A stretch of 7,047 nucleotides of DNA. Origin: a plasmid. The stretch lies in NCBI RefSeq assembly GCF_053078305.1, contig NZ_CP166877.1. One strand, 5' to 3'. The number at the start of each line of letters is the position of its first letter. The first letter of the stretch is position 1. This document shows positions 3,105 through 6,420 of the stretch, piece by piece. The position numbers and the translations under genes are program-made. Under the pieces are notes generated by a model. It worked only from the letters and a program-made list of their open reading frames with translations. It was not told where the DNA came from and searched no databases.

Positions 3105-3209
3105 CAGTTTTATATCTCATCCTGATTTGCTCCGGTGTTCTGTTTCGACGTTCTCAATGCCTGCCTCCCCATAGTGTGATCCTTATTGCAAAAATGAAAA
3201 TCCATGCTC

Positions 3210-3238
3210 TTGACACGGACAATGCTGAGTAGTAGGTT
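3210..3238 (+). promoter_or_regulatory. Colicin operon sigma70 promoter (-35 TTGACA 3210-3215; putative -10 TAGGTT 3233-3238)
   Basis: Consensus -35 TTGACA, a 17-bp spacer and an imperfect -10, immediately upstream of the tandem LexA boxes and about 80 bp upstream of the colicin ATG. This is the usual colicin promoter architecture. Confidence 0.7.
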
Positions 3239-3242
3239 TTCA

Positions 3243-3273
3243 CTGTACATAAAACCAGTGGTTATATGTACAG
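3243..3273 (+). promoter_or_regulatory. Tandem LexA (SOS) operators overlapping by 1 bp
   Basis: CTGTACATAAAACCAG (3243-3258) and GTGGTTATATGTACAG (3258-3273), each close to CTGT-N8-ACAG. The double overlapping SOS box is the hallmark of colicin promoters, and the arrangement is near-identical to the colicin E1 operator as I recall it. Confidence 0.85.
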
Positions 3274-3317
3274 TATGCTGTTTTTAATTTATTGTTTTAA
3301 TTATCAAAGAGGAATTT

Positions 3318-4964
3318 ATGGCTAAAGAACTAAGTGGATATGGCCCAACTGCTGGTGAGTCTATGGGGGGAACAGGGGCGAATCTGAATCAGCAAGGTGG
3401 AAATAATAATAGTAATAGTGGGGTTCACTGGGGTGGTGGCTCTGGGCATGGTAATAATGGTGGTCAGGGAAATTCAAATTCATCTGGTTCTACATCAACT
3501 GTGATGAAAACCGGTGAGTCATATCTGACTCCGTGGGGTGATGTTGTCATTAATAATGATGGCCTTCCGGTGATGAATGGTATTGTTATGACAGAAGAGA
3601 ATTCAACTCTGGTTGATAATCCATTTGGAGGGGTCTCCAGAGTTCTTAATTCTTTAATTAGTGATATGCCATCACTTTTTGCAGAAAGCTCAGGAAATAA
3701 CAACAATAACACTGCTTCAGTTAATACTGCACCAACGAATGCTCAGGTCAGTGATATGGATAAGAGTTCGAAGGTGGTGGGTAATGTAATTAATGAAAAA
3801 CAAAAGCAGAAGAATAAAATTGCTACACAGATTAGTGAAAAACAGAAGAAAATAGAGGAGATGAAAAAAGTATTCAAGCATCATTCTTATCATGGTATCA
3901 CTGATCTTGAGAGGGATGTTGATGAGTTGCAAAAAAAATCAAATCAGCTTGATGCAGATATTAGCAAACTTAATTCTTATAAAAATACATTGCAAAGTAA
4001 AATTGGTGATGTGAATAAACAGAAGGAAGCTGAAGAAAAGGCTCGTGAAAATGCAGAGGTCGCTGAACATGAAACTCTTAATGAAGAGAAACAGGCGGTG
4101 GTGGAAGCAGAGAAGCGTTTAGATGAGGCGAAAGCTGAACTGGCGAAGGCTGAAAGTGATGTACAGAGTAAGCAAGCTACTGTTTCCAGAGTTGCAGGAG
4201 AGCTTGAAAACGCTCAGAAGAGTGTTGACGTGAAGGTCACCGGATTTCCGGGATGGCGTGACGTTCAGAAAAAACTACAGCGTCAGCTTGAAGCTAAGCA
4301 GGCTGAGTACTCCGCAGTTGAAAATGAACTTAAGAATGCTGTTAGTTTCAGGGATGGCAAGGCTGCTGAGGTAAAAGAGGCAGAGCAGAAATTAAAAGAA
4401 GCTCAGGATGCTCTTGAAAAGAGCCAGATAAAAGATGCTGTTGATACTATGGTTGGGTTTTATCAATATATAACCGAACAATATGGAGAAAAATACGCAA
4501 AAATTGCTCAGGATTTAGCGGAAAAGTCTAAAGGAAAGAAAATTCAAGGTGTTGATGAAGCTCTGGCAGCATTTGAAAAGTATAAAAATGTACTGGATAA
4601 GAAATTCAGTAAAGTTGATCGGGATGCTATTTTTAATGCGTTAGAGTCTGTTACTTATGATGAGTGGGCAAAGCATCTAGAAAAGATCTCTAAGGCTCTT
4701 AAGGTTACCGGATATTTGTCTTTCGGGAATGATGTATGGGATGGTACCCGGAAGGGATTAGAAACAGGAGACTGGAGGCCTTTATTTGTCACTCTGGAGA
4801 AGAGTGCGGTAGATTTCGGAGTGGCAAAAATTGTGGCATTAATGTTCAGTTTTATTGCTGGTGCTCCTCTTGGTTTCTGGGGGATTGCTATTATCACTGG
4901 TATTGTTTCTTCTTACATAGGGGATGATGAGCTGAACAAACTTAATGAGTTGTTAGGGATTTAA
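3318..4964 (+). CDS. cka: Pore-forming colicin of the E1/K/5/10 family; length and organisation best fit colicin K
   Basis: 548-aa ORF with AAGAGG SD 5 nt upstream. It has the three expected parts: a Gly/Asn/Ser-rich low-complexity N-terminal translocation domain, a long Lys/Glu-rich coiled-coil central region, and a C-terminal channel domain closely resembling the colicin E1 pore domain as I recall it ([59 protein letters not shown], then the hydrophobic hairpin [33 protein letters not shown]). Colicin K is 548 aa; the specific K assignment is from memory. Confidence 0.92.
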
Positions 4965-5251
4965 TATCTCTTTAGAGTGTAATATATGAAACTTGGCAAT
5001 CCTACTGGGATTGCCATTGCCAGGTAAAGTAAATAAAAAAGGTTGTATGAGTACCAAGGCTCTTTTTTTATGTTTGTCGTCTTTTGTATAAAAGAAAATA
5101 TCGTTAGTTTTGAATATGGGTATAGTAATACATGTATTGATGCAAAAAATATAAAAGCTAGAGATATATCATTGTTATAGTTAAGTGTTAAATATAATAA
5201 CCATGGCAGAAGTGATTCAGGTAAATTATGTAGGTAGTATTTTAGATACAT
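4961..5251 (-). CDS. cki: Colicin immunity protein (pore-former type, integral membrane)
   Basis: 96-aa ORF convergent with the colicin gene. It is very hydrophobic and AT-rich with about three predicted transmembrane segments ([12 protein letters not shown]..., [16 protein letters not shown]..., [23 protein letters not shown]). Position and opposite orientation between colicin and lysis genes are typical of pore-forming colicin immunity genes. Its stop overlaps the colicin stop in TTAA (4961-4964). Confidence 0.85.
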
Positions 5252-5275: not shown

Positions 5276-5407
5276 ATGAAAATAGTGCTTTTTCTAATTA
5301 CAATATTATCCTTGTCAGGATGTCAAGCAAACTATATTCGTGATGTACAAGGAGGAACCGTTGCGCCATCTTCGTCTTCTGAACTGACGGGGATCGCGGT
5401 TCAGTAG
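5276..5407 (+). CDS. ckl: Colicin lysis (release) lipoprotein
   Basis: Not in the ORF track because it is short. Manual translation gives [43 protein letters not shown] (43 aa): signal peptide, lipobox LSG-C, and the conserved mature motif [11 protein letters not shown] typical of colicin lysis proteins. GGAGG lies just upstream. Confidence 0.85.
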
Positions 5408-5415
5408 AAAAGATC

Positions 5416-5441
5416 AAAGGATCTCTTGAGATCCTTTTTTT
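5416..5441 (+). terminator. Rho-independent terminator-like hairpin plus T-run at the end of the colicin operon
   Basis: AAAGGATCTC-TT-GAGATCCTTT inverted repeat followed by TTTTTTT, 9 nt after the lysis gene stop. The same motif occurs at the equivalent place in pMB1/pBR322. It overlaps the RNAII promoter -35. Confidence 0.5.
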
Positions 5442-5454
5442 CTGCGCGTAATCT
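5426..5454 (+). promoter_or_regulatory. RNAII (replication primer) promoter: -35 TTGAGA (5426-5431), -10 TAATCT (5449-5454)
   Basis: Matches the ColE1/pMB1 RNAII promoter context (TTGAGATCCTTTTTTTCTGCGCGTAATCTGCTGC), with a 17-bp spacer. Confidence 0.7.
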
Positions 5455-5467
5455 GCTGCCTGTAAAC

Positions 5468-5573
5468 GAAAAAACCCGCCTTGTGGCGGGTTCTTCCGTC
5501 CGATCAGAAGTCTTCGACCTCTTCTAATCGGCGGTGGTAACTGGCTATCGCAGAGCACAGGTACCTAAATTGT
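5468..5573 (-). ncRNA. RNAI antisense copy-number control RNA
   Basis: The reverse complement reads ACAAUUUAGGUACCUGUGCUCUGCGAUAGCCAGUUACC..CCGAUUAGAAGAGGUCGAAGACUUCUGAUCGG..AACCCGCCACAAGGCGGGUUUUUU. This gives three stem-loops and a terminal hairpin plus U-run, homologous in layout to pMB1 RNAI but with different stem and loop sequences. Confidence 0.8.
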
Positions 5574-6249: not shown

Positions 6250-6420
6250 CTCCTTACGCATCTGTGCGGCATTTCACACCCGACATGGCGCATTTTTCAT
6301 ACTATCTACACTGATGCCACATGATTAAGCCAGTATACACTCCGCTATCGCTACGTGACTGGGTCATGGCTGCGCCCCGACACCCGCTAAAACCCGCTGA
6401 CGCGCCCTGACGGGCTTGTC
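6250..6420 (-). other. oriT / bom region with a conserved ColE1-type nick site (minus strand CTGG|CTTA; nick between 6330 and 6329)
   Basis: TAAGCCAGTATACACTCCGCTATCGCTACGTGACTGGGTCATGGCTGCGCCCCGACACCCGC...GACGGGCTTGTCTGCTCCCGGCATCCG is near-identical to the pBR322 bom segment as recalled. The nick position is placed by homology to the ColE1 nic site as I remember it. Confidence 0.6.

Follow-up and report, generated by a model that had tools for sequence, protein, structure and literature searches.

The colicin K plasmid and its genes

By sequence comparison, the stretch of DNA analysed here (7047 bp, referred to as the window) is a complete and circular ColE1-type colicin K plasmid of E. coli. 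After a rotation of 1495 bp, it is 99.3% identical from end to end to NZ_CP046541.1 (pFHI_NMBU_10_02, a plasmid of E. coli that also has 7047 bp), from which it is separated by 49 substitutions and no indels. These substitutions are partly clustered, with nine of them located in 6283-6319 and four in 1908-1932, for example. Identity to the prototype of the family, pColK-K235, is about 95%, and the prototype carries an IS2 insertion that is missing from the window. The annotation found beneath the match comprises cka, an oppositely oriented immunity gene of the Cki family, the lysis gene for colicin release, and rop, together with mobC, mbeB, and mbeD for mobilisation. Rfam recognises RNAI in the minus strand (5466-5572).

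The colicin gene, cka, extends from its ATG at 3318 to 4964 on the plus strand and encodes, according to the ORF list and Pfam, a full-length colicin K-type pore-forming colicin of 548 amino acids. Its product matches the Pfam pore-forming domain Colicin (E = 8.8e-32), as well as ColA_N, and the corresponding gene of the 99.3%-identical plasmid is named cka in RefSeq. The immunity gene (4961-5251, minus strand) encodes a protein of 96 amino acids that belongs to the Cki family (Pfam CKI, E = 5.6e-48), and it is followed by the gene for the colicin release (lysis) lipoprotein (5276-5407, plus strand; 43 amino acids; Pfam Lysis_col, E = 1.6e-23), the translation of which shows the lipobox LSGC. 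The three proteins have the same lengths in pColK-K235 (548, 96, and 43 amino acids), where the genes also appear in the same order, with cka, the immunity gene on the opposite strand, and the lysis gene. A search of NCBIfam returned no specific family for the three proteins of the colicin locus, but just weak coiled-coil matches far under the cut-offs.

The genes for the colicin, the immunity protein, and the lysis protein are intact. The preliminary description of this region had reached the same conclusion from the operator, which on its own cannot show intactness; the conclusion holds because the three ORFs are full length. The term operon that was used there also needs to be narrowed. It is adequate for cka and the lysis gene, which read in the same direction, but it leaves out the immunity gene, which is not driven by the LexA-controlled promoter because it is located on the minus strand and reads the opposite way.

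A G+C-poor hairpin followed by a T-run (5416-5437, plus strand) appears nine nucleotides past the stop codon of the lysis gene, and this terminator-like site is likely to represent the end of the cka-lysis transcription unit. The wider region at 5416-5450 (AAAGGATCTCTTGAGATCCTTTTTTT) is terminator-like on both strands, and RNAI lies just beyond it. By analogy with ColE1-type origins, this region presumably overlaps the promoter of the RNAII primer, for which an apparent TTGAGA and TAATCT separated by 17 bp can be recognised. Another palindrome, with a 9-bp stem (TGGCAATCC...GGATTGCCA), is found at 4994-5016, within the 3' end of the immunity gene and 30 nucleotides past the stop codon of cka. 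This one is terminator-like on the minus strand only, and on the plus strand it is not followed by a T-run. If the palindrome has a role at all, it might be to restrict read-through towards the lysis gene.

A variant colicin and immunity module

The colicin encoded in the window has the same length as Cka from pColK-K235, from which it differs by 28 substitutions. Most of them (26 of the 28) are concentrated in residues 446-540 of the pore domain, a segment in which the protein follows colicin 10. The immunity protein exhibits 69% identity to Cki from K235 and 79% to Cti, the immunity protein of colicin 10, and an identical protein is encoded in only one plasmid of PLSDB, NZ_CP046541.1. Neither the immunity protein nor this segment of the pore domain fits the prototype colicin K type. 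Judged from these comparisons, the protein is K-like overall, with an immunity module that is variant or mosaic. This variant of colicin K appears to be either a mosaic of the K and 10 types or the holder of a distinct (third) immunity type within the K/5/10 group.

The promoter and leader of cka

The region 3210-3273 is almost certainly the sigma-70 promoter and SOS operator of cka. This reading relies on the sequence elements, the matrix scores, their non-random occurrence, the conservation in homologues, and the intact genes, all of them observed in this study. The promoter holds a -35 hexamer TTGACA (3210-3215, plus strand) that matches the consensus at all six positions and is invariant in the 16 aligned bacteriocin promoters. 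The -10 hexamer, TAGGTT (3233-3238, plus strand), is located after a 17-bp spacer and matches TATAAT at only three of six positions. A generic promoter consensus scan of the window did not call the cka promoter, because its -10 matches fewer than four of the six consensus positions. For this reason, the -10 was not assigned from the generic scan, but from the conservation of TAnnTT in homologues. The positions T1, A2, T5, and T6 of the hexamer are invariant across 16 homologous promoters, and the motif is found in the same register in all 19 sequences. In the TTGACA/-10 promoter proposed in the preliminary description, the -35 is a full consensus match and the spacer falls in the range of 16-18 bp, while the -10 is weak by consensus and conserved in its TAnnTT positions. 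From the usual distance of 7 ± 1 nucleotides past the -10, transcription of cka is predicted to start around 3245-3247, within the first LexA box.

Between the operator and the ribosome-binding site lies a conserved T-rich leader (3274-3306, plus strand) of the form TAT..TTTTTAA..ATTGTTTTAA..TCAAA, which contains many invariant T columns in the 16-sequence alignment. It is followed by the Shine-Dalgarno sequence AAGAGG (3307-3312, plus strand), located five nucleotides before the ATG and included in an AAAGAGG that is nearly invariant in the alignment. [quoted passage not shown] The same applies to the designation of the region as a colicin promoter, considering that the downstream ORF is that of colicin K and that the operator is the one of pColK-K235.

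The double LexA operator

The operator is located between the -10 and the Shine-Dalgarno sequence of the bacteriocin gene cka, and it consists of two 16-bp LexA boxes on the plus strand, both identical to those of pColK-K235. Box 1 (CTGTACATAAAACCAG, 3243-3258) adjoins the -10 hexamer, with a gap of 4 bp, in agreement with the preliminary description, which had located the boxes immediately downstream of the promoter. Box 2 (GTGGTTATATGTACAG, 3258-3273) is gene-proximal and more degenerate. Direct reading and string extraction showed that the two boxes have a single base in common, G3258, so that the two overlapping operators and their shared base had been located correctly to the nucleotide. 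The complete 31-bp operator is a near-perfect inverted repeat, self-complementary at 28 of its 31 positions, with arms (3242-3257 and 3259-3274) that are 94% complementary. Its outer half-sites, CTGTACAT and ATGTACAG (CTGTA/TACAG), are consensus-like, and the inner ones, AACCAG and GTGGTT (CCAG/GTGG), are degenerate.

The two boxes were scored, as the preliminary description had advised, with a LexA weight matrix, a symmetrised 20-bp model built from 18 chromosomal SOS boxes of E. coli (Table 4 of PMC3009722). The 20-mers at 3241-3260 (box 1) and 3256-3275 (box 2) reached 17.9 and 16.0 bits, respectively. These are the two best sites on both strands of the window, the third one scoring 8.6, and both values are within the range of the training sites (13.8-27.5). 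Box 1 is thus nearer to the LexA consensus than box 2, and the same has been described in PMC11332147 (after Gillor 2008 and Ebina 1983) for the left box of the consensus colicin operator. Among 1000 random windows generated with a first-order Markov model, the score of box 1 was reached in 0.3% and that of box 2 in 1.0%, and none contained two such sites 15 bp apart. The skeleton CTG-N10-CAG-N12-CAG has one match in the window, at 3243-3273, while dinucleotide-preserving shuffles yielded a mean of 0.06 matches, with any match at all in 12 of 200. A loose search for CTGT-N8-ACAG allowing one mismatch, which returned three matches versus 2.5 expected and found only box 1 of the two boxes, was replaced by the weight matrix and the skeleton pattern.

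Comparison with other colicin promoters

Relatives of the promoter segment can be recognised in 1418 plasmids of PLSDB, from Escherichia, Klebsiella, Salmonella, Yersinia, Shigella, and others. The comparison covered 18 of these relatives, namely two colicin K plasmids, the loci of colicins 10, E1, R, and E2, those of several tRNase colicins and of the pesticin of Yersinia pestis, and unannotated bacteriocin loci on large plasmids. In all 18, the CTG-N10-CAG-N12-CAG skeleton begins 27-28 bp past TTGACA, and TAnnTT is present in the -10 register. In the alignment of 16 sequences, little or no variation is seen in the -35, TAnnTT, most operator columns, the ATTGTTTT motif, and AAAGAGG. Scores across the compared promoters range from 14.4 to 24.3 bits for box 1 and from 10.9 to 18.3 bits for box 2. 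The arrangement found in the window is that of colicins E1, E2, R, and 10, the tRNase colicins, and pesticin, with the same offset.

The operator of pColK-K235 (from which pKCT1 derives) is identical to that of the window at 31 of 31 positions, and the -35 and -10 are identical too. Near the operator, the two plasmids differ by four substitutions, with C instead of T at 3216 and at 3241 and GC instead of AT at 3277-3278 in the window. The last two are adjacent changes that fall within the conserved leader, 4-5 nucleotides past box 2, and a G at the first of these positions is also seen in the promoter of colicin 10. The promoter/operator of cka from pColK-K235/pKCT1 has reportedly been studied by the groups of Žgur-Bertok, Butala, and Busby.

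The consensus double SOS operator of enteric colicins likewise holds overlapping boxes just past the -10, one of them nearer to the LexA consensus. Compared with it, the operator described here shows no structural difference, but only changes of individual bases, such as CTGTAC in place of the CTGTAT of colicin E1. Work on this type of operator is said to include that of Gillor, Vriezen & Riley in 2008, Ebina et al. in 1983 (colicin E1), and Lu & Chak in 1996 (ColE operons). Chromosomal SOS genes with several boxes (lexA, recN, umuDC, and ydjM) are controlled by the same repressor through the same 16-bp CTG-N10-CAG motif, and in them too multiple sites lead to a tighter control. However, the boxes of those promoters do not overlap (PMC11332147), whereas those of the colicin type share one base pair, and therefore their centres are only 15 bp apart.

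A near-identical promoter/operator module (96-98% over 181 bp) drives csa (colicin S4) and cta (colicin 10), with examples in the RefSeq E. coli plasmid NZ_CP173543.1 (1492-1672) and in a second locus (749-885). Because the same module precedes csa and cta, it is common to toxins that differ in their receptor and translocation parts.

Reported regulation of cka by LexA and IscR

The evidence on how this operator works comes from the literature on the identical sequence, which covers LexA binding, occlusion of the RNA polymerase, slow dissociation, SOS induction, and co-repression by IscR. It has been demonstrated that the tandem cka operators of the colicin K plasmid pKCT1 bind LexA, which occludes the RNA polymerase (PMC3159453, PMC2655658, PMC4482635), with EMSA, SPR, and in vivo DNA sampling being the published methods. 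In SPR experiments, LexA leaves the cka tandem operator significantly more slowly than that of tisB or the single box of recA, and this slow dissociation has been offered by the authors as the reason for the late induction of cka (PMC3159453). In vivo, LexA has been recovered on the cka promoter, and upon addition of nalidixic acid its presence goes down while that of RNA polymerase goes up (PMC2655658). The LexA site has been located just downstream of the -10 of cka, where it blocks RNA polymerase (PMC4482635), and the induction by DNA damage has been reported to be dependent on RecA and LexA (PMC2655658, PMC4482635).

Colicin genes characteristically carry a pair of overlapping SOS boxes (PMC2994835). 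According to PMC11332147, the binding of LexA to the two boxes of the consensus colicin operator is cooperative, and cooperative binding is reported there for colicin E1 as well. The cooperativity attributed to the double SOS box at the outset is in line with this source. The statement that the operator keeps the operon repressed is well founded regarding LexA, but it is incomplete, since LexA is not the sole repressor. IscR is reported to co-repress cka, stabilising LexA and delaying induction well past that of other SOS genes (PMC4482635).

A tentative IscR type-2-like site (AAATCCATGCTCTTGACACGGACAA, 3198-3222, plus strand) overlaps the -35 hexamer and matches six of the nine specified positions of AxxxCCxxAxxxxxxxTAxGGxxxT. 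It is the best match in the promoter, at a level reached by about 0.9% of the window positions and not above background. In the same register, three promoters of the colicin E2 type match 2-3 of the nine positions, and the other promoters retrieved match 4-7. This pattern parallels the published dependence on IscR of pore-forming, but not nuclease, colicins (PMC4482635). The putative IscR site at 3198-3222 is a lead; promoters of pore-forming colicins that are double-locked by LexA and IscR were reportedly described by Butala et al. in 2012.

According to the mechanism that can be proposed, two LexA dimers would occupy the two 16-bp boxes in undamaged cells, with their centres 15 bp apart and each dimer contacting one consensus outer half-site and one degenerate inner half-site. 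The dimers would cover the DNA from 4 bp past the -10 to roughly +30, including the predicted transcription start, and RNA polymerase would be excluded. Heavy and persistent DNA damage would generate RecA*, which would promote the self-cleavage of LexA, and as free LexA falls the operator would be cleared late. IscR, the second repressor reported, would keep the promoter shut for longer. Transcription would then proceed through cka to the lysis gene, so that colicin would be made and released at the expense of the producing cell. We infer that transcription from the LexA-controlled promoter runs through cka to the lysis gene as its distal gene, and that this plasmid is SOS-inducible and behaves like the characterised cka.

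Alternative explanations

The palindrome could be a product of chance, devoid of any role in regulation, in intergenic DNA that is AT-rich, as the loose CTGT-N8-ACAG matches, which occur at the expected level (three versus 2.5), might seem to indicate. The probability of this is negligible, given that none of the 1000 random windows holds paired matrix sites at 15 bp, that the skeleton is expected 0.06 times per window, and that the same arrangement with the same offset appears in the 18 other loci. A chance origin is excluded by the random windows, the skeleton count, and the conservation in homologues. It has also been considered that the palindrome might act mainly in the cka mRNA, by forming a stem-loop at its 5' terminus, or be the target of another protein such as AsnC or IscR, and not serve as a LexA operator. 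In the predicted fold of the leader, the two boxes do form a hairpin at the 5' end, and across the 19 sequences the pair 3248/3268 is always C-G, T-A, or T-G, with C-A absent. Nevertheless, RNA structure was rejected as the main explanation because the energy of the leader fold is ordinary (z = -0.92), which leaves the palindrome itself as the support for a hairpin. Moreover, some homologues lack inner pairs of the stem, with C·A in the H22 plasmid and A·G in the promoter of pesticin, and the matrix, which was built on unrelated chromosomal genes, recognises both halves as LexA sites. AsnC, for its part, has been found to bind a fragment of the cka promoter in vitro, yet it has little influence on the expression of the gene in vivo (PMC4482635), while binding of LexA to this very sequence has been published (PMC3159453, PMC2655658, PMC4482635). 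Thus, a main function in RNA or for another protein is highly improbable, although not to the extreme of a chance origin.

Only slightly less improbable is that the nearby substitutions (C3216, C3241, and G3277/C3278) alter the function of the promoter, rendering it leaky, silent, or differently timed, and without the classical tight SOS control. C3241 does reduce the score of the box 1 20-mer from 19.9 bits in pColK-K235 to 17.9, and the GC at 3277-3278 is absent from the records of PLSDB and from those of complete E. coli genomes in RefSeq, where identity over 3150-3330 reaches 98.9% at best. Against this, the window and pColK-K235 do not differ in the 16-bp cores, the -35, or the -10, the natural plasmid NZ_CP046541.1 also has C3216 and C3241, and the altered positions correspond to variable columns of the alignment. 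In addition, proven chromosomal boxes span a range that includes 17.9 bits, and box 1 of other functional colicin promoters, such as that of colicin E2, scores lower (14.4). The reading of the region as the SOS-controlled promoter of cka, which no observation contradicts, is therefore preferred. A somewhat better, though still small, chance can be given to a more elaborate proposal, in which the 31-bp palindrome may do double duty, as LexA operator and as a 12-pair stem-loop at the 5' end of the mRNA that would set its stability or translation, so that the pairing of 3248 and 3268 would reflect selection on the RNA too; separately, C3241 and the GC at 3277-3278 might shift the threshold at which the K/10 mosaic is induced.

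Significance of the operator

Colicin promoters have been known to carry a double SOS box since the 1980s. As the exact operator had also been characterised biochemically before, the cka promoter/operator of this plasmid was already known and adds no new biology. Its value is mainly that of an anchor for annotation, as it marks a colicin K-type plasmid and fixes the direction of transcription of cka and the lysis gene. The operator further predicts that production of the toxin would be SOS-dependent and confined to heavily damaged cells.
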